Shown here one piece after another: positions 512 through 8,964 of a stretch of DNA of 64,000 nt (its first letter is position 1; each line of letters starts with the position of its first letter). The DNA is taken from contig CAYXSR010000003.1 of NCBI GenBank assembly GCA_964467735.1, forward strand, positions 1,078-65,077, written 5' to 3'. The notes under the pieces are model-generated. The model was not told the DNA's origin and did not search any database. It saw nothing but the letters and a program-made list of their open reading frames with translations. Origin of the DNA: an uncultured Pseudomonadales bacterium. GTDB lineage: Bacteria; Patescibacteriota; Microgenomatia; UBA1400; CAYXSR01. Both the position numbers and the translations under genes were made by a program.

Positions 512-1966
512 TTAAATTCTTCTCTTTTTGATCTTTCTTAATCCAAACTCTTTATAAACTAGTTTAATAATTTTTTTAACAGATGGTGCCAGTTTTGTAC
601 TATCCTTCTTATCTAATACTCGTTTTTTGAAAACTAACTTACCAATTCTTAAAATTGGCTTTACTACTTGACCTTTTTGTGGCAAACCATCAGTTACTAG
701 AAGTTCATTTTCCAAATCATGAATATCAAAAGTGGTAAAACCAGGACGAATAAAATTAATTTTATTTTTATCAAATCGATAGATGCCTGGTCTTACATCT
801 TTGGTAACTAACTGATAATCATGGGTTAAATTATTGAGAACCAAATGGCTTCCTTGCTTTGGTCTTTTATAAAGATTATCGATTGTTTTAAAATCCATCT
901 GATAGTTAAGTTTTAAAAGTTCTAATAGGTGAAAAACGTCAAAAGGTGGCTCTTCTTGTTCCATTTGCAACATTGAATAAATTGGAAAAGCGCCAGTATA
1001 ACGCGGATTACATTCACAAGGATAAACTTCTTCAGTTTTCTTATCAACCAATAAATCAATTCCAAAAATGCCTCGATAACTGTGTTTCCACATATATTCA
1101 CCCACTTTTTGAGCAATCAATTCTGCTTGTTTTTGAACTTTTTCAGAATAAACTTTAAAACTCCAATCATGACCACAAAACAAACCACTACCTTTGTCTA
1201 GATTTACAATTGTTGGTTGATCTAAAATTTGTGTTTGAACCGGTCCAGTTAGAATTCCAAAACGAGTAACACAACCAGTAATACTTGGCGAAAAAGCATC
1301 AATGTATTTGGTAACAATCACATGACGCAAATTAAATTGAGAAGACCAAGTAGCAACTTTTTCTTTAAATTTATTAAAATCAGTTATCTTTTTGACAAAC
1401 ACTAAAGAGTACCCTCCTCCTTTCGTAAGCTCTGGCAGAATCAACACTACTTTTTTCCATTTTTTTAAAAAGATTGCTAATTTTTGCTTTGTCAATTCAG
1501 ATATTTTTAATTTCTCTCCAGGAGCAACTTTCACTTTTACCTTCTTAAGTAAAGATCGAAAAAAATCTTTGTTTTCATATGGATCTCTTATTGATGCTCG
1601 ATTAGCAACAATATGCCAGCCAAACTTATCACAAACTTTCTCAATATTCTCTGTTGAGCGATATAAAACTAAATAGGGTTTTGTAGCTAAAGAATTTAGA
1701 TATTCCTGCACTCTAGGATTTTTGACAATTGTCAACGTATTATATTTACCTGCTTTCTCTCCTCTTTTAGTAAAGTTCCTTTCTACCGAAAGAGTTTTCA
1801 TTTTTTGAGCAATTAAATCATTTTCCGCGGCATCCTTCATTCCAATTAACTGATAATCTTTTTTTATTAACCCCGGAACAACTCGATGAAAAGCATTAAT
1901 ATCTAAACCAATTAAAGGCTTTTTAAACTTCAATAATGGAGAAAAGTAATCAGTTTTCATTTTCAA
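512..1966 (-). CDS. ATP-grasp domain carboxylate-amine ligase (484 aa)
   Basis: Full-length ORF. Central and C-terminal ATP-grasp signatures (…GGGYSLVFVKK…, …GIFGIDLLVD…EVYPCECNPR). 17-bp overlap with the upstream ATP-grasp/protease gene, so it sits in the same operon. Confidence 0.6.
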   Translation of the reverse strand: MKMKTDYFSPLLKFKKPLIGLDINAFHRVVPGLIKKDYQLIGMKDAAENDLIAQKMKTLSVERNFTKRGEKAGKYNTLTIVKNPRVQEYLNSLATKPYLVLYRSTENIEKVCDKFGWHIVANRASIRDPYENKDFFRSLLKKVKVKVAPGEKLKISELTKQKLAIFLKKWKKVVLILPELTKGGGYSLVFVKKITDFNKFKEKVATWSSQFNLRHVIVTKYIDAFSPSITGCVTRFGILTGPVQTQILDQPTIVNLDKGSGLFCGHDWSFKVYSEKVQKQAELIAQKVGEYMWKHSYRGIFGIDLLVDKKTEEVYPCECNPRYTGAFPIYSMLQMEQEEPPFDVFHLLELLKLNYQMDFKTIDNLYKRPKQGSHLVLNNLTHDYQLVTKDVRPGIYRFDKNKINFIRPGFTTFDIHDLENELLVTDGLPQKGQVVKPILRIGKLVFKKRVLDKKDSTKLAPSVKKIIKLVYKEFGLRKIKKRRI

Positions 1967-3260
1967 TATTGATCATAAAACCTTTTAGGTCTCGACGGCC
2001 AATAATCATTGGTCTTTTTAATTTTGAGCGGTCAGAAATGTTGGCTACTGTTTTAATTTTTCTGTCTTTTAACCAAAAAACTAATTCTACTAATGGCCTT
2101 CTTTCTCTTCCTAAAGCGCTTCGATAATATTTTTCCAGCAAGACATTTTCCGGATTTAAAAGTCCTAATTGTTCAGCTAACTTTTCATCGATTGATGTCC
2201 GGTAAGCACCAGTGTCAATTTTTGCCTTAACAGGGACTCTTTCTCCTAAAAATGTTCTTACTTCTATTGTTTCAAAAACATCAACGGTTCTCTTACCAGT
2301 TCCAATGTCTCTTAATTTCGGATTGGCAAATAATTCTTTAGAGATTTTTATTCCTTTTTCAGCTGATTCTACTTTTAATCCTTCTATTCTTAGTAAACGA
2401 CGTCTTAAGCCAGCTCGGTTAGCTAATTGAATTTTTAGACCTGGTTGAGCATTCAACTCTAAAACCTTAGGAAATGTTTTTCCGGGTTTTTTTAAAGATG
2501 GCTGAAGAGTAATATCAGCTCTCATAAACCCCAATTTCGGAATCGCAATTTGACAATTAACTGCCAGCTTTAAAACCTCGTCCCACTCGGGAATTTTAAT
2601 TCCTGATAATTTCCTTCTTGTTCCGGGGAAAAACTTTATTGGATCTGTCCATTTAATTGCATAAGTTGTAATTCCGGTTGCCATATCAATTCCACAAGCA
2701 ATTGCCCCTTGGAACATATTGGCTCGGCCGCCAGATTCTTTTGTTGGCAGTCTAAGGTAAGCCATCACTGGCACTCGATTAAAAACCAAAACCCCAATAT
2801 CTGGAGTTCCTCCCCAACAAACTTTTTTAAAAGCAGGGTGAATTCTTATTCTTTCTTCAACAAAAGCAATATCGGGTTTGTTTTCCATAGAAAACCGACC
2901 CTCTAAGATGTCTTGAATAAGCAGCTTAAAATCACCAATTGTTTTTGTTTCCCCTGTAGTTGTAACCCATTCTCCAGCATATTTACCATGTTTAGCAATT
3001 ACTAATATTCCTTCTCCCCCTAAAGAGTTATCTGGTTTTATAACAAAACTCTCTGGGAGTTTTTTTATAAAATCAAACTTATCAATTTCTTCAACTTTTC
3101 TAAAAACTCGATAAAGCTTTGGAATAGGCAATTTTGCTTTTCTTAAGGCTGATTTTGTCAATAATTTATGATTAGCAATTTTTTTTCCGGAGACTCTATT
3201 ATATCGAGAAAGGAAAAGAGTATTGCGGGCATTCATGCCCAAAATGTCTCGAATTTTCAT
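1950..3260 (-). CDS. alpha-L-glutamate-ligase-like (RimK-related) ATP-grasp enzyme fused to a C-terminal retropepsin-like 'ATP-dependent Zn protease' domain
   Basis: N-terminus 'ILGMNARNTLFLSRYN' and the body match the RimK-related alpha-L-glutamate ligase-like family. The C-terminal ~120 aa ('VPVKAKIDTGAYRTSID…') matches the retropepsin-like Zn_protease domain that is normally a separate neighbouring gene. 4-bp overlap with the upstream 7TM gene. Confidence 0.6.
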   Translation of the reverse strand: MKIRDILGMNARNTLFLSRYNRVSGKKIANHKLLTKSALRKAKLPIPKLYRVFRKVEEIDKFDFIKKLPESFVIKPDNSLGGEGILVIAKHGKYAGEWVTTTGETKTIGDFKLLIQDILEGRFSMENKPDIAFVEERIRIHPAFKKVCWGGTPDIGVLVFNRVPVMAYLRLPTKESGGRANMFQGAIACGIDMATGITTYAIKWTDPIKFFPGTRRKLSGIKIPEWDEVLKLAVNCQIAIPKLGFMRADITLQPSLKKPGKTFPKVLELNAQPGLKIQLANRAGLRRRLLRIEGLKVESAEKGIKISKELFANPKLRDIGTGKRTVDVFETIEVRTFLGERVPVKAKIDTGAYRTSIDEKLAEQLGLLNPENVLLEKYYRSALGRERRPLVELVFWLKDRKIKTVANISDRSKLKRPMIIGRRDLKGFMINIENEN

Positions 3261-4204
3261 TTTAGAAGACTCTTAAATTTCTTATATTCTAATAGTCTTA
3301 AACCAGCATACTTCCCCACAAAAATATCAAAAACAGCTATTCCAATAATACTTGCTTCTGGATAAAGCAGAACAAATTTCTGTAAAAATTCTAGCTGTAA
3401 AAATAAAGAACAAAATAAGGCAATTACTAAAGTTTCAAAAGTCATCTTCACCGCCTGTTTCATTGACATACCAATATGAATACTAATAAAGTTTTCTGCT
3501 AAAAGAATCAAAATTAAAATTGGAAAAATTGAAAGAGTCATAATTGTCGTAAAATTTAAAACCGGAGCGATAAACAAAACTGCTAAAACACCCAAAGACA
3601 CAAACCACAAAAGTAAGGCCATTCTTGGTAAATATTGAATCTTTATCTTTCGCAAAACTATTCTTGCCCCTGTTGCCACAATGATAATGGTTAAAAAAAG
3701 AAGCAGACCTTCAAAAACACCTGTGGAGACAAAGACAACAGAAAGAACTACGGGCAGAAAAATACCAAAACCTTCCATTCCTATTAAATGTCTCAAACCA
3801 GCAATAATCGCCGCCACTAAAGGAAATAAAAGAATTAAAACCACTGTGTTTGCAGGAACTCCTCTTTTAATAATAAAGCGGATTGCGTGCTGAAGAGGAT
3901 TAGTAAATGTTAATGGCTTTAAGGGATGTTCTGCCAAATGTCTTTCTAATTTATCTTTAATCTCTGGAGTTGGTTCAGTAATATCTGGTTTTTTTTCAAC
4001 TACTCTTTCGACTATTGGTTGAGCTGATTCGCTTGCCTGGGCAGTTGAAGTTGACTCTAAACTTTCATCTACATTTTCAGTGGTAATATTGGAAACCACT
4101 GTTTGTGCCTCTACAAGCTGAGGCTTAAAATTAAAGAAAAATAGAAATACAATTAGAAATAGAAAAATCTTCTTCATCTTCTCTATATTATAACAAAGAA
4201 GCAT
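3257..4204 (-). CDS. polytopic (about 7 TM) membrane protein with N-terminal signal/secreted region; 7TM partner of the ligase/protease system
   Basis: Signal-like N-terminus, a Ser/Thr/Glu-rich extracytoplasmic segment, then about 7 hydrophobic helices. The position corresponds to the 7TM component of the 7TM-transglutaminase / ATP-grasp / retropepsin triads, but no transglutaminase domain is recognisable here. Confidence 0.45.
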   Translation of the reverse strand: MLLCYNIEKMKKIFLFLIVFLFFFNFKPQLVEAQTVVSNITTENVDESLESTSTAQASESAQPIVERVVEKKPDITEPTPEIKDKLERHLAEHPLKPLTFTNPLQHAIRFIIKRGVPANTVVLILLFPLVAAIIAGLRHLIGMEGFGIFLPVVLSVVFVSTGVFEGLLLFLTIIIVATGARIVLRKIKIQYLPRMALLLWFVSLGVLAVLFIAPVLNFTTIMTLSIFPILILILLAENFISIHIGMSMKQAVKMTFETLVIALFCSLFLQLEFLQKFVLLYPEASIIGIAVFDIFVGKYAGLRLLEYKKFKSLLK

Positions 4205-4228
4205 TAGTCAACAATTAGTAAAGAAATT

Positions 4229-5203
4229 TTACTGACAACCGCCAGTATCTCCAGTTGCAGCTTGAGAAGATAAAGTTGTTTTGCATTCTTTTGGTGGATT
4301 ATCAAAAGAATTACAAATAGCGCTCTTCAAGGCCTCTGGTGTTCGCAGCTGAGTAGCATTAAAGTCTGTCTCATTAATCCTTAATCCTTTATTATAGGCT
4401 TCATTGGGTGGATACAAGACGCCATTAATAAAGATTGTTGGTGAGCCGCTAACTCCACCCATCTGCTCAGCAGCCGCTATATCAGTTCTTAACAAATCAG
4501 TTCCCTGGTTATTAGCACATTCCTCAATCTTGGCGACATCAAATCCTGCTTTTTCTGCCCATTGCTGCCAACACTCACCAATATTATCTAAAGTACAGTT
4601 AGTATTTAAATCATTTACAAATTGCCACCATTTAGTTTTATCCTCAGCCATGTTAAAAGCACAAATTTCGCGGACATCTTGTTTTAACTCCTCTTCTCCG
4701 TGAAGAGAATCGAATGTGCCGATTTCTAAAGGATCACATTCTCCAGTAATACATTCATCAACTGTGTTATAAGGAAAATATTGTTTACAAGTTTCCATGT
4801 CTGGCAATTGACCCTGCTTTATTGCATCTTCACAGCGTTTTTTATTCTCATCATTAAAAAGCCGCTGAGGACAACTTGTTTGGCAAGCATCTTTTGTTTC
4901 TTGAGTAATCTCAGAAACAATATAGCGTGGTTGCCATTCGACTTTATCGCCTAATAAATCAGCGACTGGCTTCAACCCTGTCTCAGCTTGATTACCATAA
5001 GGACAATAACTCATAACAAAAAACTCAATTTTAGGTTTTTTATTCTTAGAAGCTTCAAAAATAGCCGGATCTTCTAATTTTACTTGAGCTCCTTGGACAT
5101 TTTTATTGGTTTTTTCTGCCTGAATTTTATTAAATAAATTTCCCGCTCCAAAAGCTACTATCACTAATAATCCTATTAAAATAGTGTTTGTTTTTAGCTT
5201 CAT
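4229..5203 (-). CDS. secreted/anchored cysteine-rich thioredoxin-fold (DsbA-like) protein
   Basis: The likely start is the internal Met (MKLKTNTILIGLLVIVAF… signal/anchor); the 5245 start in the ORF track would overlap the ferredoxin. A thioredoxin-like 'FFVMSYCPYG' segment is followed by more than 14 further Cys residues and a 'GSPTIFINGV' DsbA-like C-terminus. Confidence 0.5.
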   Translation of the reverse strand: MKLKTNTILIGLLVIVAFGAGNLFNKIQAEKTNKNVQGAQVKLEDPAIFEASKNKKPKIEFFVMSYCPYGNQAETGLKPVADLLGDKVEWQPRYIVSEITQETKDACQTSCPQRLFNDENKKRCEDAIKQGQLPDMETCKQYFPYNTVDECITGECDPLEIGTFDSLHGEEELKQDVREICAFNMAEDKTKWWQFVNDLNTNCTLDNIGECWQQWAEKAGFDVAKIEECANNQGTDLLRTDIAAAEQMGGVSGSPTIFINGVLYPPNEAYNKGLRINETDFNATQLRTPEALKSAICNSFDNPPKECKTTLSSQAATGDTGGCQ

Positions 5204-5403
5204 TTTTGCTCCATTTCCTGCCAGGAAATTGCTTGAACCGGACAACCATCTATGGCTGATTGAATTGTTTGTTCATCATCTCCTGTTGGATTAACAACAA
5301 CACTTTTACCATTATCATTCAATTTAAAAGTCTTCCCGGCTATCCCCACACAAGCGCTACAACCAATACATTTATTCGCATCAACAATTGGGTTTTTTGC
5401 CAT
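5200..5403 (-). CDS. small ferredoxin (single 4Fe-4S/3Fe-4S cluster type)
   Basis: 67 aa with CIGCSACVGIAG…CP, the classic Cx2Cx2C…CP motif of small mono-cluster ferredoxins. Confidence 0.75.
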   Translation of the reverse strand: MAKNPIVDANKCIGCSACVGIAGKTFKLNDNGKSVVVNPTGDDEQTIQSAIDGCPVQAISWQEMEQK

Positions 5404-5476
5404 TTTTTTCTCCTTTTTAAATTTGGTTTTTAAATATAGAGGAAGTATACCAGAATCTTTTTCTGATTGCTATATT

Positions 5477-6454
5477 CTAAATTCCTCGCTGTTGAGGAGC
5501 CATTTCTTTTCTTAAATAAACATAAGCTGATCGGCTAGCCAACGCTCCCATTCCACAAGCAGTTATCATTTGAGCAAAACCATAAATAAAATCAGTACAA
5601 TCACCAGCTGCAAAAATTCCTGAGATGTTCGTATTCATCCACTTATCTACTTTAATAAACCCCTGTTCGTTCATTTCTATCCCCATTTCTTGCGCCAAAT
5701 TTGTTCCAGGAACGCCACCTATCTCAATAAATACTCCATCCACAATAAGTTCTTTCTGATTTTTGTAAGGCTTATCTAAAATTATTTGAGTAACCTTCTG
5801 GCCATCCCCTTTAATTTCAACAACATTAGTATCATAAATTGTTTCTCCTTTGCCTGATTTCTCGATATTTTTCCATTCATTTATCCAAGCTGGTTCAGCC
5901 CGTAATTGATCTTTACGATAAATAATGTAAACTTTTTTAGCATATTCTGAGGCATGAACTGCTCCAGAAACTGCTCCATCTGAACCGCCAACTAAGACAA
6001 CAATCTTGTCTTTATAGAAAGGAGCATCACAAGTAGTACAGTAGGAAACTCCTTTTCCTAAATATTCATCTTCGCCATTAATTCCTAAGGTTCGTCTTTC
6101 TGTCCCACTGCTAATAATTAGAGATTTCGCCTGATAAGTTTGTCCTGAAAGAGTATAAACAACGAAGTCTTGTTCATTATTTTTAGTAATTTTTTGAACC
6201 GGATCATAGACAACTGACGTTCCCAAACCCTTAGCATGTTCTTCAATTTTCGTCATTAAATCAAGTCCAGGAATACTCCTGAAACCGGGGTAATTTTCTA
6301 CTTTATGAGCTAAACCAATTGTTCCCCCAATTTTTTTACCTAAAACTAGGTTGGTCAAATTATAACGGCTGGCATATATTGAGGCAGTCAAGCCAGCCGG
6401 ACCGGAACCGATAATAATTAAATCATAAACCATTTTTCGAGTCCCAATAAGCAA
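5477..6454 (-). CDS. trxB: thioredoxin reductase (NADPH)
   Basis: FAD motif IIIGSGPAGLTA, redox-active CTTCD disulfide motif, second NAD(P)H Rossmann motif VVLVGGSDGA; about 325 aa. Confidence 0.9.
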   Translation of the reverse strand: MLIGTRKMVYDLIIIGSGPAGLTASIYASRYNLTNLVLGKKIGGTIGLAHKVENYPGFRSIPGLDLMTKIEEHAKGLGTSVVYDPVQKITKNNEQDFVVYTLSGQTYQAKSLIISSGTERRTLGINGEDEYLGKGVSYCTTCDAPFYKDKIVVLVGGSDGAVSGAVHASEYAKKVYIIYRKDQLRAEPAWINEWKNIEKSGKGETIYDTNVVEIKGDGQKVTQIILDKPYKNQKELIVDGVFIEIGGVPGTNLAQEMGIEMNEQGFIKVDKWMNTNISGIFAAGDCTDFIYGFAQMITACGMGALASRSAYVYLRKEMAPQQRGI

Positions 6455-6476
6455 TCAAGTACAAGCTTGAGATAAT

Positions 6477-6800
6477 TTATTTATTATACTTTTTTAAAGT
6501 CTCTATTATTTCTTCTTTTGGTCTTGCTCCCACTAATCTTTCCATTTCTTGACCATTTTTAAATACCACCATTGTGGGTACACTCATAATACCATACTTA
6601 CTGGCTGTTCCAGCAGCCTTATCGACATCGACTTTAGCAATTTTATATTTATTACCAACTTCTCCGGCAACTTCTTCGATTATTGGTCCTAGCATTCGAC
6701 AAGGAGGACACCAAGTCGCCCAAAAATCAACTAATACTACGCCTTTCTCGTCCAAGACTTCTTTTTGAAACTTATCATCAGTTAAATGTAAAACTGTCAT
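6477..6800 (-). CDS. trxA: thioredoxin (active site WCPPC)
   Basis: 107 aa with 'VLVDFWATWCPPCRMLGP…MSVPT…F.NG' thioredoxin fold; active site CPPC rather than the canonical CGPC. Confidence 0.9.
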   Translation of the reverse strand: MTVLHLTDDKFQKEVLDEKGVVLVDFWATWCPPCRMLGPIIEEVAGEVGNKYKIAKVDVDKAAGTASKYGIMSVPTMVVFKNGQEMERLVGARPKEEIIETLKKYNK

Positions 6801-6808
6801 TTTTCTCC

Positions 6809-7045
6809 TTAGAAATTAGAAATCTTTTTTAACATTTCTCTTACTTTTTCTTCTTTATTTTCTCTTAAACAAGAAACGGTTTCCTCAGTTAAAATTTCTC
6901 TAGCTAAACTAGCCAAAGCACTTCTTACCGCACTTATTTGCTGAACAACTTCTAAACATTTCCTTCTCTCTTTATACATTCTTTCTATACCATCAAGTTG
7001 TCCCTTTATTCTAGCTATTCTGGTTATTATTTTATCTTCTGGCAT
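6809..7045 (-). CDS. CsoR/RcnR-family metal/persulfide-sensing transcriptional repressor (Cys-x-Cys type, CstR-like)
   Basis: 78 aa all-helical protein with the CsoR/DUF156 pattern. The sensing positions are Cys30 and Cys59 with Glu, not His, at the 'Y' position, as in the persulfide sensor CstR rather than the Cu sensor CsoR. Confidence 0.75.
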   Translation of the reverse strand: MPEDKIITRIARIKGQLDGIERMYKERRKCLEVVQQISAVRSALASLAREILTEETVSCLRENKEEKVREMLKKISNF

Positions 7046-7068
7046 CTTTAAATTGCTTCTTCCTTATC

Positions 7069-7110
7069 TATACTCCCACCCAGTATATTCATCTGTTCGT
7101 CTTTTGTCAA
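7069..7110 (-). promoter_or_regulatory. sigma70-like promoter (TTGACA-17-TATACT) with an overlapping ATACT-GGGTGGG-AGTAT inverted-repeat operator, upstream of the csoR-like gene
   Basis: On the minus strand: TTGACAaaagacgaacagatgaaTATACTgggtgggAGTATA. The -35 is 7105-7110, the -10 is 7082-7087 and the palindrome is 7069-7087. CsoR-family operators are G/C-tract-centred inverted repeats of this type. Confidence 0.45.
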
Positions 7111-8216
7111 GTATTTAATAAAAATCTAACTTTTCTGGACCTAATAATTTTTGATTTTTCTTTTACTTTCTCCCAGTTTTTTTCTCCTTCTTTTTTGGCT
7201 GCCATTGTGCCTTGTCGCGGAGAATAGCGGAAAACATGTGTCTTTCTAAATCTCTTGCCAAGTAATTTTTTAAATTTTTTTAAAGTAATCATCGTTTCTT
7301 CAAATTCTTCTTGGGTTTCTCCTGGAAAACCAACAATGATATCGGTCGAAAAAGAAAAATTAGGAATAATTTTTTTCAAAATTTGAAGTTTTCTAAAAAA
7401 GTCTTCAACGCCATATTTTCTTCTCATTCTTGCTAAAACATTGTTACAGCCAGATTGAAGAGGAATATGAAAATGACTAGTCAGTCTAGGTTGGATTTTT
7501 TTATCTTCGTATAATTTTAAAAATTCCCTATTAAAAGCATTGATATTAATTGAACCAAAAGATATTTTGTCTATTTTTGTGAATTTTAAAATATCTTTAA
7601 CTAGTTTAGCTAAACTAGGCTGATAATCACTTACTTCTACTCCTGTTAAAATTATTTCTTTTATCCCCTCTTTTATTTGTATATTAACTTCTTTAATAAT
7701 TTCCTTAATAGGTCTTGAAATTGAACGACCCCGCAAAAAGGGCACGATACAATAAGTACAAAAATTATTGCAACCTTCTTGAATTTTAATTAATGCTTTT
7801 CCTGAACTGGCATATTTGTCTTTATAAAAATTAGCCAACAAGGGTTTTTTAAAACAGCCTAATTTCTTTTTCAAAATTTCTGGAAGCTTCATTTTATTCT
7901 TATTCTCTATCAATAAATCAATTGAGGAAGAAAATTTTCGAGGAGATTTTTTAAATAGCTTTTCTGCCCAACAGCCAGAAACAATTAAAAAACAATCAGG
8001 ATTCTCTCTTTTAATTTTCCTGATCATTTGCCGTACCTCTTTATCAGCCTTTTGAGTCACACTACAGCTGTTAATAATAACAATATCTGCTATTGATAAA
8101 CTATTAACAACCTTTAATCCGGGAAACCGAGAACATAAAGCTTCTCCCATCATTCGGCTCTCTGCTTGGTTTAAACGACAACCAAAAGTTATTAATTTCA
8201 AATTGAACCTAACCAT
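7107..8216 (-). CDS. radical-SAM methylthiotransferase (MiaB/MtaB/RimO family, no obvious TRAM domain)
   Basis: N-terminal MTTase Cys triad (FGCRLN…NSCSV…SGCWAE) plus radical-SAM CNNFCTYC motif. Confidence 0.8.
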   Translation of the reverse strand: MVRFNLKLITFGCRLNQAESRMMGEALCSRFPGLKVVNSLSIADIVIINSCSVTQKADKEVRQMIRKIKRENPDCFLIVSGCWAEKLFKKSPRKFSSSIDLLIENKNKMKLPEILKKKLGCFKKPLLANFYKDKYASSGKALIKIQEGCNNFCTYCIVPFLRGRSISRPIKEIIKEVNIQIKEGIKEIILTGVEVSDYQPSLAKLVKDILKFTKIDKISFGSININAFNREFLKLYEDKKIQPRLTSHFHIPLQSGCNNVLARMRRKYGVEDFFRKLQILKKIIPNFSFSTDIIVGFPGETQEEFEETMITLKKFKKLLGKRFRKTHVFRYSPRQGTMAAKKEGEKNWEKVKEKSKIIRSRKVRFLLNT

Positions 8217-8235
8217 ATTTGAAGATTAGAGGTTT

Positions 8236-8964
8236 TTATTTTTCAGCAACTAAAGTTCCAATCTGTGCTCCTCGAACAATTTCTGGAATCTTACCAATAT
8301 CTTTAACACTAAAAACAATAATTGGTTTTTTCTTTTTCCAACATAAAGCAAATGCCGTTGCATCCATTACTTCTAAATTTTTCTCAATTGCTTGTTTATA
8401 GGTTAATTTAGAAAAACGGGTAGCTTTTGGATTTTTCTGAGGATCTTCAGAATAAATACCATCTACATTTGTTGCTTTCAAAATAGCATCGCAATTAATT
8501 TCACAAGCCCTTAAAGCTGCTGCTGAATCAGTAGTGAAAAAAGGGCTTCCTGTTCCGCCAGCAAAAATAACAATTCTACCTTTTTCTAAATGACGAATGG
8601 CTTTCCTACGAATAAAAGGTTCAGCAATAGCTTTCATCTCTAAAGCAGTCATCATTCTGGTCGGCATTCCTAATCTCTCCAAGGCCTCCTGTAACGCCAG
8701 ACCATTAATTACTGTTCCTAACATCCCCATATAGTCAGCTACTGTTTCATCAACACTTCGTCCCTCTATTTCGCGACCGCGAAAAATGTTACCGGCGCCA
8801 ACCACAATCGCTAACTGAATAGAATTCTTCTCTTTTATTTTAATAATATTGTGGGCAATCTTTTCATAGGCAGAAAAGGAAATACCCCAACCGTCTTTCT
8901 TTCCAAAAAGTTCGCCGCCTAATTTTAAAATTACTCTTTTATATTTAAGTTTTGTATCAACCAT
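8236..8964 (-). CDS. pyrH: UMP kinase
   Basis: 'RVILKLGGELF' N-terminus and amino-acid-kinase fold signature throughout; 242 aa. Confidence 0.9.
   Translation of the reverse strand: MVDTKLKYKRVILKLGGELFGKKDGWGISFSAYEKIAHNIIKIKEKNSIQLAIVVGAGNIFRGREIEGRSVDETVADYMGMLGTVINGLALQEALERLGMPTRMMTALEMKAIAEPFIRRKAIRHLEKGRIVIFAGGTGSPFFTTDSAAALRACEINCDAILKATNVDGIYSEDPQKNPKATRFSKLTYKQAIEKNLEVMDATAFALCWKKKKPIIVFSVKDIGKIPEIVRGAQIGTLVAEK

Follow-up and report, generated by a model that had tools for sequence, protein, structure and literature searches.

What does a small CsoR-family repressor sense, and which genes does it control, when the genes that directly follow it encode a thioredoxin and a thioredoxin reductase? 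The question is raised by a locus in the window, by which we mean the whole 64-kb stretch of DNA that was analysed. The ultra-small Patescibacteria (the candidate phyla radiation), to which nearly all named relatives of this regulator belong, represent a large share of bacterial diversity. To our knowledge almost none of them has been cultured, their gene regulation is essentially unknown, they carry few transcription factors, and no genetics in culture exists for them. The first-pass annotation of the locus had proposed a persulfide sensor resembling CstR that would govern thioredoxin, thioredoxin reductase, ferredoxin and a downstream ligase system. Here we consider the protein, its promoter and predicted operator, and the gene neighborhood, each in comparison with relatives (features of the window are listed in Table 1).

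Table 1. Positions of the features discussed, numbered from the first letter of the window.
Feature	Position	Strand	Remarks
CsoR-family repressor, 78 aa	6809..7045	-	C30-E55-C59, no His, three predicted helices
-35 hexamer TTGACA, regulator/trx operon promoter	7105..7110	-	overlaps the TGA stop (7109-7107) of the upstream MiaB-like radical-SAM gene
-10 hexamer TATACT (operator left arm)	7082..7087	-	17 nt past the -35
Predicted operator TATACT-GGGTGGG-AGTATA	7069..7087	.	core ATAC-N9-GTAT at 7070-7086; arms 7082-7087 and 7069-7074, separated by the 7 nt GGGTGGG
Thioredoxin trxA, 107 aa	6477..6800	-	Pfam PF00085 E=5e-33; TIGR01068 122.6 vs cutoff 96.8
trxB, thioredoxin-reductase family flavoprotein, 325 aa	5477..6454	-	CTTC active site
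Extended -10-like element TGgTATACT, trxB-fdx spacer	5444..5452	-	conserved
4Fe-4S ferredoxin fdx, 67 aa	5200..5403	-	Pfam Fer4_13

Results

Family, fold and sensing site of the regulator

Membership of the CsoR family, as first annotated, was borne out by the family profile, by alignment to solved structures and by the predicted fold. The regulator matched Pfam PF02583 (Trns_repr_metal; CsoR/RcnR, DUF156) with an E-value of 1.5e-21 and 77 bits against a cutoff of 22.8, and the match covered residues 4-75 on positions 3-76 of the 78 in the profile. Its AF2 model (pLDDT 91) consists of helices at residues 2-25, 30-61 and 65-76, and the best 19 PDB matches returned by Foldseek were all chains of InrS, CsoR, CstR or FrmR (TM 0.62-0.84). 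Within the family the protein is equidistant from CstR, CsoR, InrS and FrmR at 30-37% identity; the values for SpCstR (about 35-37% identity, E=2e-9) are similar to those for InrS and CsoR. The NCBIfam models for RicR, RcnR and FrmR gave scores of 47.6, 41.1 and 44.6 against cutoffs of 175, 138 and 133, respectively.

Cys30 and Cys59 are the only cysteines that can be read in the 78 residues, which include Glu55 and contain no histidine at all. Cys30 marks the start of helix 2, Cys59 lies near the end of the same helix, and Glu55 precedes Cys59 by one helical turn. In HMMER alignments both cysteines register without gaps on the two cysteines of S. pneumoniae CstR (7mq1), InrS and Geobacillus CsoR, and Glu55 falls opposite the histidine of InrS, Geobacillus CsoR and 6ahx, and opposite Asn55 of S. 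pneumoniae CstR. The alignments to InrS, Geobacillus CsoR and 6ahx, being gapless, uphold the earlier description of a Cys pair with Glu55 at the His position of Cu-sensing CsoR; with the register settled, no His appeared at position Y.

Among the 148 nearest cluster representatives, the cysteine at position X (Cys30) was conserved in 140 and the complete C-E-C fingerprint in 59, and the fingerprint was present in 114 of 115 relatives found by profile search. Members of this group that carry names are nearly all Patescibacteria. Judged from these alignments, the regulator belongs to a distinct and uniform C-E-C clade of the CsoR family. The reach of the searches differed considerably: a word-indexed homologue search with the single protein returned 4 close relatives only, and an exhaustive search of representatives together with the profile search reached further. 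Likewise, scanning contigs with the single regulator protein gave no match, and scanning from a tighter alignment (A3) yielded the species loci used below; these 41 species-representative loci sample the main clade, not the window lineage. No protein identical to the window regulator was found in the contig index, and it has no named record. In the limited literature collection searched, we found no description of the C-E-C clade or of a CsoR-family regulator of trxAB; clusters 6-9 of the published CsoR sequence similarity network (SSN) are uncharacterised (PMC8643695).

Promoter and predicted operator

The promoter and the palindrome were found as first described, with the -10 of a TTGACA-17-TATACT promoter embedded in the inverted repeat. 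This promoter was the best match between positions 1500 and 8500 (11/12) and the only strong one before regulator-trxA-trxB. The predicted operator, with the core ATAC-TGGGTGGGA-GTAT, overlaps both its -10 and the predicted transcription start, and would span about -12 to +7.

Taken alone, the operator in the window is statistically not compelling. In 400 nt there were 10 pairs of 6-nt inverted repeats, such a repeat by itself being unremarkable, and a single ATAC-N9-GTAT match per 64 kb was seen in 31% of shuffles. Its significance derives from conservation in relatives, not from statistics within the window. Relatives at 51-90% protein identity retain the site together with the -35 and a spacing of 17 nt, and differ in the sequence of the spacer; TTGACA is invariant in loci L001, L004-L008 and L056. 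The centre base of the operator is T, C or A among relatives of the window lineage, and in L056 the left G-tract is degenerate with the arms and the right GGG retained. The first-pass annotation had treated recurrence of the palindrome as a mark of a genuine operator. No further copies were found in the 64-kb window, either with up to 3 mismatches or with looser patterns, but the palindrome does recur at the orthologous position in other genomes.

In the main clade, ATAC-N9-GTAT was present within 200 nt upstream of the orthologous regulator gene in 40 of the 41 species loci, and with one mismatch in the 41st; elsewhere in the 204.6 kb covered it occurred once, the part outside the upstream regions amounting to about 196 kb. 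The clade consensus is ATACCCCCTGGGGGTAT (40/41 loci), and the main-clade site reads ATACCCCCTAGGGGTAT. Published operators of the CsoR/RcnR family are AT-rich inverted repeats, with a TAC/GTA dyad, around G/C tracts (PMC3902906). They include the S. lividans CsoR operator ATATACCCCTNAGGGGTATAT, with a TAC-X9-GTA dyad, and the RcnR operator TACT-G6-N-AGTA (both PMC3902906), as well as the S. mitis cst operator ATATACCCTTATGGGGTATAT (PMC8643695). The sites of the window and of the clade match the TAC-N9-GTA geometry of these CsoR, CstR and RcnR operators, and the one in the window equals the RcnR layout (PMC3902906), in agreement with the earlier view of a G-tract palindrome of the type bound by CsoR-family tetramers.

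The two lineages place the site differently. When main-clade sites are aligned, the operator lies between TTGACA and the -10, the latter being formed by the right arm of the operator, whereas in the window lineage the left arm serves as the -10, so that the site is shifted relative to the main clade. The spacing is that of the main clade; however, only the outer 5-6 nt of the window operator are palindromic, and the G-tracts inside it share one strand, which sets them apart from those of the main clade and makes them resemble those of the RcnR type 1 site. Going by these sequences, the orthologous regulon could have exchanged a type 2 palindrome for a type 1-like site with a one-strand G-tract, and the operator could also have moved within the promoter. 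Because a family-type site overlaps the -10, and with the comparative data added, the prediction that the regulator controls both itself and trxA-trxB has good support.

The regulator-trxA-trxB unit

The start of trxA lies 9 nt past the stop codon of the regulator, and the ribosome-binding site of trxA (AGGAG) overlaps that stop. The NADPH motifs of trxB are non-canonical (GGSDGA and YRKDQLR). Directly after the regulator came trxA and then trxB in 40 of 40 informative loci from the 41 species-representative genomes, and the three genes share one strand in the window, in 8 loci of the window lineage and in 4 of 4 distant relatives. Outside this unit the genes vary: upstream lies a MiaB-like gene, DnaG or a hypothetical gene, whereas the downstream side has fdx, GDH or other genes. 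Taken together with the operator, this linkage agrees with the proposed control of thioredoxin and thioredoxin reductase.

For ferredoxin and the downstream ligase (ATP-grasp) genes, the proposed control fared less well, with only trxA-trxB being linked to the regulator clade-wide. An fdx gene behind trxB is confined to the window lineage (L001, L004 and L056), the main clade having none at this position. The trxB-fdx spacer includes a block, TTCTGGTATACTTC, that is invariant in the window, L001 and L007, and its element TGgTATACT probably provides fdx and the genes after it with a promoter of their own. No hairpin or terminator was found in this spacer, whose fold is no better than that of shuffled sequence (z=-0.29). 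Since fdx has its own conserved promoter-like element, repressor control of the ferredoxin and ATP-grasp genes is doubtful, and a confident assignment to the regulon is possible for trxA and trxB only. It is possible that the ferredoxin acts as electron donor to the atypical TrxB.

According to Pfam, the neighbors of the regulator in the window are trxA, trxB, fdx, a DsbA-like gene and a radical-SAM gene. A weak terminator-like hairpin (4247-4230) overlaps the end of the DsbA-like gene. In the roughly 50 loci examined, no gene for a sulfurtransferase/rhodanese, SQR, persulfide dioxygenase, TauE or CoA-persulfide reductase was found beside the regulator; the Pfam check for such detoxification genes covered the window, L001-L014 and L056. 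Neither were genes for CopA, CopZ, RcnA or other metal-efflux functions found beside it, in the window or in the loci of relatives that were examined.

Discussion

Our results favor the hypothesis that the regulator is a repressor with a CsoR scaffold that works as a thiol-based redox switch, controls its own expression and is dedicated to the thioredoxin system, and we regard this reading as reasonably probable. Members of the family form dimer-of-dimers tetramers that bind DNA in the unliganded or reduced state. By analogy with the tetramers of CsoR and CstR, the reduced repressor tetramer would sit on the operator and block RNA polymerase. Oxidation of C30 and C59' across the dimer interface, either to a disulfide or to a per-/polysulfide bridge, would lower the affinity for DNA, and the lowered affinity would lead to derepression of the regulator, TrxA and TrxB. 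The induced thioredoxin and thioredoxin reductase would then re-reduce the repressor, closing a homeostatic loop. In vitro, the dithiol sites of CstR are reactive towards persulfides and, with fast kinetics, also towards H2O2 (PMC11672702). Candidate inducers for the present regulator would be H2O2, disulfide stress or reactive sulfur species, and the invariant Glu55 probably tunes the reactivity or the spacing of the cysteines, replacing the "wedge" Asn of CstR.

Cysteine switches that induce trxA/trxB and are reset by the induced reductases are represented by RsrA/SigR in Streptomyces, Spx in Bacillus and OxyR in E. coli. The logic of RsrA-SigR-trxBA and of Spx-trxAB would be like that of the loop proposed here. 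Their folds and modes of action are unrelated to those of a CsoR-type repressor, RsrA being an anti-sigma factor, Spx an RNAP-binding ArsC-like activator and OxyR a LysR activator, and unlike them the window regulator is a CsoR-type repressor that is encoded inside its own predicted target operon.

The redox-switch hypothesis should be weighed with some reservation. A carboxylate beside the thiols could be a metal ligand, which counts against it, and autoregulated repressors situated beside housekeeping genes may answer signals unrelated to the chemistry of the gene products. Moreover, a persulfide-specific signal would account for the linkage to trxAB just as well, for in S. aureus protein persulfides are reduced by thioredoxin-like proteins (PMC6196236). 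We propose only tentatively, and incline somewhat against, the further-reaching view that the C-E-C clade is a CsoR-family sensor specific for oxidants, either peroxide or disulfide stress, that Glu55 sets this specificity, and that the clade is the principal self-resetting regulator of thioredoxin across Patescibacteria. As of a 2024 review, no H2O2-specific sensor of the CsoR family had been characterised (PMC11672702).

Among the alternatives, a persulfide-specific sensor of the CstR type survives best, and we consider it rather unlikely. Here the C30 thiolate would attack the sulfane sulfur of low-molecular-weight persulfides, the resulting di-, tri- or tetrasulfide bridges to C59' would release the repressor, and Trx/TrxR would act as a depersulfidase system, in line with the persulfide reduction mentioned above. 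Many Patescibacteria inhabit sulfidic, anoxic settings, and the operator of the main clade differs very little from cst operators, although the window lineage departs from them in having its G-tracts on one strand. CstR (S. aureus, E. faecalis, S. pneumoniae; SSN clusters 4 and 10) has the same PF02583 three-helix fold, C30 and C59 of SpCstR align with those of the regulator, neither protein has a His at position Y, and by analogy the chemistry likely held in common would be inter-protomer Cys-Cys' oxidation. An x-C-x-C pattern without the Y-position His is found in SSN clusters 3, 4 and 10 (PMC8643695), and the candidate CstRs of cluster 3 are likewise without the wedge Asn (PMC11672702). However, the wedge Asn at Y (x-C-N-C), Asn55 in CstR, marks clusters 4 and 10 (PMC11672702), and in the window clade it is replaced by an invariant Glu. 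Furthermore, the regulator is no nearer to CstR (about 37%, E=2e-9) than to InrS or CsoR, and no sulfide-detoxification gene adjoins it in any locus examined, whereas CstR clusters were assigned by precisely this neighborhood (PMC8643695). The targets of CstR are sulfurtransferases, SQR, persulfide dioxygenase and CoA-persulfide reductase, those of the window clade trxA-trxB, and CstR occurs in Firmicutes whereas the regulator described here occurs in Patescibacteria. From the original assignment to a CstR-like persulfide sensor, the x-C-x-C site without a Y-position His is retained; the equidistant identity, the Glu in place of Asn and the absence of detoxification neighbors in the loci examined speak against the remainder. 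Persulfide is a possible inducer, and we do not favor it over general thiol oxidation.

A metal sensor, in which a Cys2-Glu site would bind Cu(I), Zn(II) or Cd(II) and thereby release the repressor, and in which thioredoxin would be induced as metals attack thiols, appears very improbable. Glu and Cys are competent Zn/Cd ligands, most characterised PF02583 proteins sense metals, and relatives of the regulator are annotated as "metal-sensitive transcriptional regulator" in the data sources. CstR itself also binds Cu(I) (PMC8643695). Against this, the characterised metal-sensing branches use at least one His (C-H-C, C-H-H, H-C-H-H or H-C-H-C; PMC8643695, PMC11672702), of which the regulator has none, and in CstR the lost Y-position His has done away with Cu-driven allostery (PMC8643695). 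No CopA, CopZ, RcnA or other efflux gene is linked at any locus examined, and the NCBIfam scores for RicR and RcnR (47.6 vs 175 and 41 vs 138) fall far under the cutoffs.

Cu(I)-sensing CsoR (M. tuberculosis, B. subtilis, S. lividans, G. thermodenitrificans) has its fold and Cys positions in common with the regulator, as well as an operator with a TAC-N9-GTA dyad and G/C tracts, and it displays the autoregulation and promoter-occluding repression that are predicted for the window protein. It differs in its Y-position His, where the regulator has Glu and no His anywhere, in a second-shell Tyr before Cys X, where the regulator has Lys29, and in its linkage to copA/copZ, which the regulator does not have. 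The E. coli RcnR type 1 operator, TACT-G6-N-AGTA, is resembled by TACT-GGGTGGG-AGTA in the window, with arms 7 bp apart and a G-run on one strand. However, the RcnR ligands H-C-H-H are all missing from the regulator, RcnR sites form a tandem pair whereas the window has one site with its G-run broken by a variable base, and the operators of the remaining C-E-C clade look like type 2, unlike RcnR type 1.

Least probable of all is an electrophile or aldehyde sensor of the FrmR type, inactivated by covalent modification of C30, e.g. a methylene bridge to the Pro2 amine: the window protein begins with Met-Pro like FrmR, and FrmR is among its detectable relatives, but alignment offsets indicate an N-terminus about 5 residues shorter than that of FrmR, FrmR chemistry does not require the invariant second Cys and Glu, the NCBIfam FrmR score (44.6 vs 133) is below the cutoff, and no formaldehyde dehydrogenase gene is linked in the loci examined. 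The Pro2-Cys mechanism was rejected, as no relative shares the Pro2 of the window protein: even the closest ones start with MEED or MKED, and others with MS/MA.

In conclusion, the presented data suggest that the C-E-C clade is an undescribed branch of the CsoR family that may run the main redox-repair system of Patescibacteria. The sensor, predicted operator, promoter and target genes of one circuit can be read from sequence, and they are conserved in many species. At the "Y/wedge" position the clade is a natural variant with Glu in place of Asn or His, and the regulon tied to it concerns neither sulfur nor metals; as such it bears on how dithiol sites within a single scaffold tell Cu(I), persulfides and peroxide apart. 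In addition, two operator versions within one orthologous system constitute a natural experiment on the readout of G-tract shape. For tests of the circuit, a single protein of 78 residues and a duplex of 20 bp should suffice.

The regulator and its sensing site

The regulator matches the CsoR/RcnR family from end to end (Pfam PF02583, Trns_repr_metal, E=1.5e-21), and it contains exactly two cysteines (C30 and C59), a glutamate at position 55 and no histidine. The register of the sensing site was fixed by HMMER alignments without gaps to solved structures, in which C30 and C59 coincide with both sensing cysteines of CstR from S. pneumoniae, of InrS and of CsoR from Geobacillus, and E55 falls on the ligand histidine in InrS, CsoR and 6ahx but on Asn55 in CstR. 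These alignments bear out the first-pass annotation, which had described Cys30 and Cys59 with glutamate instead of histidine at the Y position. An AlphaFold model (31 relatives as input) reached a pLDDT of 91 with three helices (residues 2-25, 30-61 and 65-76), and its best 19 fold matches in the PDB were all CsoR-family chains, at 30-35% identity. Glu55 lies one helical turn away from C59, in the position of the copper-ligand His or the CstR "wedge" Asn, and this invariant residue is the obvious candidate for the specificity determinant of the site.

Searched exhaustively, a set of 1.8 billion cluster representatives yielded 2030 relatives, all at or below 51% identity. Among the nearest 148 of these the sensing positions were C-E-C in 59 and C-H-C in 20; a profile built from C-E-C sequences retrieved 365 proteins, and its 115 newly listed matches comprised 114 C-E-C and one C-Q-C. 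Profile matches for which the source named an organism came nearly all from Patescibacteria (Pacebacteria, Woesebacteria, Microgenomates). The UMP kinase encoded in the window has its nearest named counterparts in Beckwithbacteria, Woesebacteria, Daviesbacteria and Microgenomates, which places the window within the Microgenomates portion of this phylum. Many species-representative MAGs among loci L015-L055 bear titles that point elsewhere ("uncultured Pseudomonadales bacterium", "Pseudomonadales bacterium HK-STAS-PATE-15", "Vitreimonas sp."); these titles are probably a taxonomy-label artefact, since gene context and isolate names both resemble those of Patescibacteria.

Features of the regulator locus in the window
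Feature	Position	Strand	Remark
MiaB/RimO-like radical-SAM gene	7107-8216		upstream of the regulator
-35 TTGACA	7110-7105	-	17-nt spacer to the -10
-10 TATACT	7087-7082	-	left arm of the inverted repeat
GGGTGGG centre, then right arm AGTATA	7074-7069 (right arm)	-	inverted repeat with TATACT
Regulator ORF	6809-7045	-	78 residues, MPEDKIITRIARIKGQLDGIERMYKERRKCLEVVQQISAVRSALASLAREILTEETVSCLRENKEEKVREMLKKISNF
trxA	6477-6800	-	107 aa
trxB	5477-6454	-
Extended -10-like TGgTATACT	5444-5452	-	trxB-fdx spacer, inside block TTCTGGTATACTTC
fdx	5200-5403	-	small 4Fe-4S ferredoxin, after trxB
Genes past fdx	1950-5245	-	Cys-rich signal-anchored DsbA/VSR_TRX-like protein (338 aa); 7TM_transglut membrane protein; ATPgrasp_ST protein with C-terminal RimB/Zn-protease-like domain

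Promoter and operator

The regulator promoter was the top promoter match within 1500-8500 (11 of 12 positions), and every element of the promoter and inverted repeat annotated earlier is present at the position given for it (Table). The TGA stop of the MiaB/RimO-like gene shares bases with the -35, and the promoter thus starts inside the 3' end of that gene. By itself the predicted operator does not exceed chance, and sequence comparison is decisive. Inverted repeats of 6 nt are frequent in this AT-rich DNA (10 pairs per 400 nt), and a single match to the core ATAC-N9-GTAT per 64 kb arises in 31% of shuffles. Recurrence of the palindrome had been proposed as a check: no second copy occurs in the 64-kb window, with up to 3 mismatches allowed, but in other genomes the core does recur upstream of the regulator. 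It lies within 200 nt in 40 of 41 species loci, with GTAC in the remaining one, and occurs only once elsewhere in the other ~196 kb around these loci.

The clade consensus ATACCCCCTGGGGGTAT (40 of 41 species loci) sits 3-4 nt 3' of TTGACA, so that the right arm (GTATATT or GTATGCT) provides the -10. The main-clade operator is like published CsoR/CstR "type 2" sites, comparable examples being the S. lividans site ATATACCCCTNAGGGGTATAT with its essential TAC-X9-GTA dyad (PMC3902906) and the S. mitis cst site ATATACCCTTATGGGGTATAT (PMC8643695). In many loci of the main clade (L009, L010 and L013 among them) the ATG follows just 8-12 nt past the -10, and transcripts would therefore be nearly leaderless. 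The operator of the window lineage shares the TAC-N9-GTA spacing but, unlike that of the main clade, carries its G-runs all on one strand, as does the RcnR type 1 site TACT-G6-N-AGTA (PMC3902906). It is displaced ~13 bp downstream relative to the main-clade position, which here makes the left arm coincide with the -10; the site extends roughly from -12 to +7. The operator type appears to have changed within the C-E-C clade; in both layouts a tetramer on the operator would exclude RNA polymerase.

Conservation in loci L001-L008 of the window lineage (81-90% protein identity) covers the -35, the -10/left arm at its 17-nt distance, the GGG-N-GGG centre and the right arm; spacer sequence, leader and central base (T, C or A) differ between loci. 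The more distant L056 (regulator 51% identical, same gene order) keeps TTGACA-17-TATACT-AGTAGGG-AGTATA, in which the arms and the right GGG are retained and the left G-run has decayed. The leader from operator to start codon differs greatly in length, at ~110 nt in L008 (300-432) but 25-45 nt in L001, L007 and the window.

The linked thioredoxin genes

The regulator lies directly 5' of thioredoxin and thioredoxin-reductase genes in 4 of 4 distant relatives that were individually looked up (35-47% identity). In a scan that took a single genome for each species (41 loci), with trxA and trxB called by tblastn using the window TrxA and TrxB, regulator, trxA and trxB follow one another on one strand in 40 loci, and the 41st is uninformative because its contig stops just past the regulator. 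By sequence comparison this unit is strictly conserved. The genes flanking it vary (MiaB-like, DnaG or hypothetical upstream; ferredoxin, glutamate dehydrogenase or others downstream). The window gaps are 9 nt between regulator and trxA and 22 nt between trxA and trxB, and no terminator-like site was found between these three genes.

Control of the ferredoxin and a downstream "ligase system" by the repressor, as first annotated, is doubtful: ferredoxin, Cys-rich DsbA-like, 7TM and ATP-grasp genes follow trxB in the window lineage only, and a conserved -10-like element precedes fdx. In the 73-nt trxB-fdx spacer, block TTCTGGTATACTTC is identical in the window, L001 and L007 and the bases around it vary; its TGgTATACT hints that fdx and the genes downstream have a promoter of their own. 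The spacer has no hairpin beyond chance, and read-through from the regulated promoter into these genes is possible. The genes past fdx look like a membrane-associated peptide-ligase module, and the 7TM and ATP-grasp pair is retained 3' of fdx in L001 and L056.

The window-lineage TrxB has GGSDGA in place of GxGxxA and YRKDQLR in place of HRRxxxR (YRGDKLR in L056, 4068-5274), scores 323 against TIGR01292, slightly below the cutoff of 343, and is ~32% identical to the TrxB of the main clade, whose motifs are GGGDSA and HRRDSFK. GxGxxA and HRRxxxR are the strict NADPH motifs that serve to call NTRs (PMC10880999); by such criteria the window-lineage TrxB classes as "non-NTR", which makes it a candidate ferredoxin-dependent flavin thioredoxin reductase. 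Main-clade thioredoxins beside the regulator (L013, 3761-4186; L012, 3881-4255) have 124-141 aa versus 107 aa in the window, their Trx domain being preceded by some 30-45 extra N-terminal residues.

Discussion

By sequence and comparison, the regulator is a CsoR-fold protein with a two-cysteine site, and a predicted operator of the family type is placed within its own promoter. We consider it reasonably probable, by analogy with CsoR/CstR behaviour, that it is an autoregulated dithiol redox-switch repressor of trxA-trxB, reset by Trx/TrxR. The reduced tetramer would repress transcription and would leave the DNA once C30 of one protomer is oxidised together with C59' of its partner; the induced Trx/TrxR would then re-reduce the repressor, closing a self-resetting loop. 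Control of trx genes by RsrA-SigR and by Spx follows an analogous logic.

In vitro, CstR proteins react not only with persulfides but, rapidly, with H2O2 too, and so far no H2O2-specific sensor has been characterised in the CsoR family (PMC11672702). A persulfide-specific CstR, close to the "CstR-like persulfide sensor" of the first-pass annotation, would agree with the fingerprint and the operator type, but we regard it as unlikely: the neighbourhood that defines CstRs is missing (no rhodanese, SQR, persulfide-dioxygenase or CoA-persulfide reductase domains in neighbouring genes of the window and the individually examined relatives), as is the Asn wedge, and the regulator is equally distant from CstR, CsoR and InrS. 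That it senses a metal is very improbable given a protein wholly without His, NCBIfam scores far under the RicR and RcnR cutoffs and neighbourhoods free of efflux genes (no CopA/CopZ or RcnA domains in the window or the individually examined relatives). FrmR-like aldehyde sensing is scarcely credible, because even the nearest relatives do not share Pro2 and the FrmR model score is 44.6 against a cutoff of 133.

A full-text literature search returned no description of a CsoR-family regulator of trxAB or of a Patescibacterial C-E-C clade, and clusters 6-9 of a 2021 SSN study (9.5% of the CsoR family) were uncharacterised (PMC8643695). The CsoR scaffold and the likely chemistry of the dithiol switch are already known; new are the residue at the sensing site, the set of regulated genes and the taxonomic group that carries the system. 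The finding is useful to specialists more than very surprising. With it, oxidant specificity in the CsoR scaffold and regulation in uncultured Patescibacteria become directly testable.
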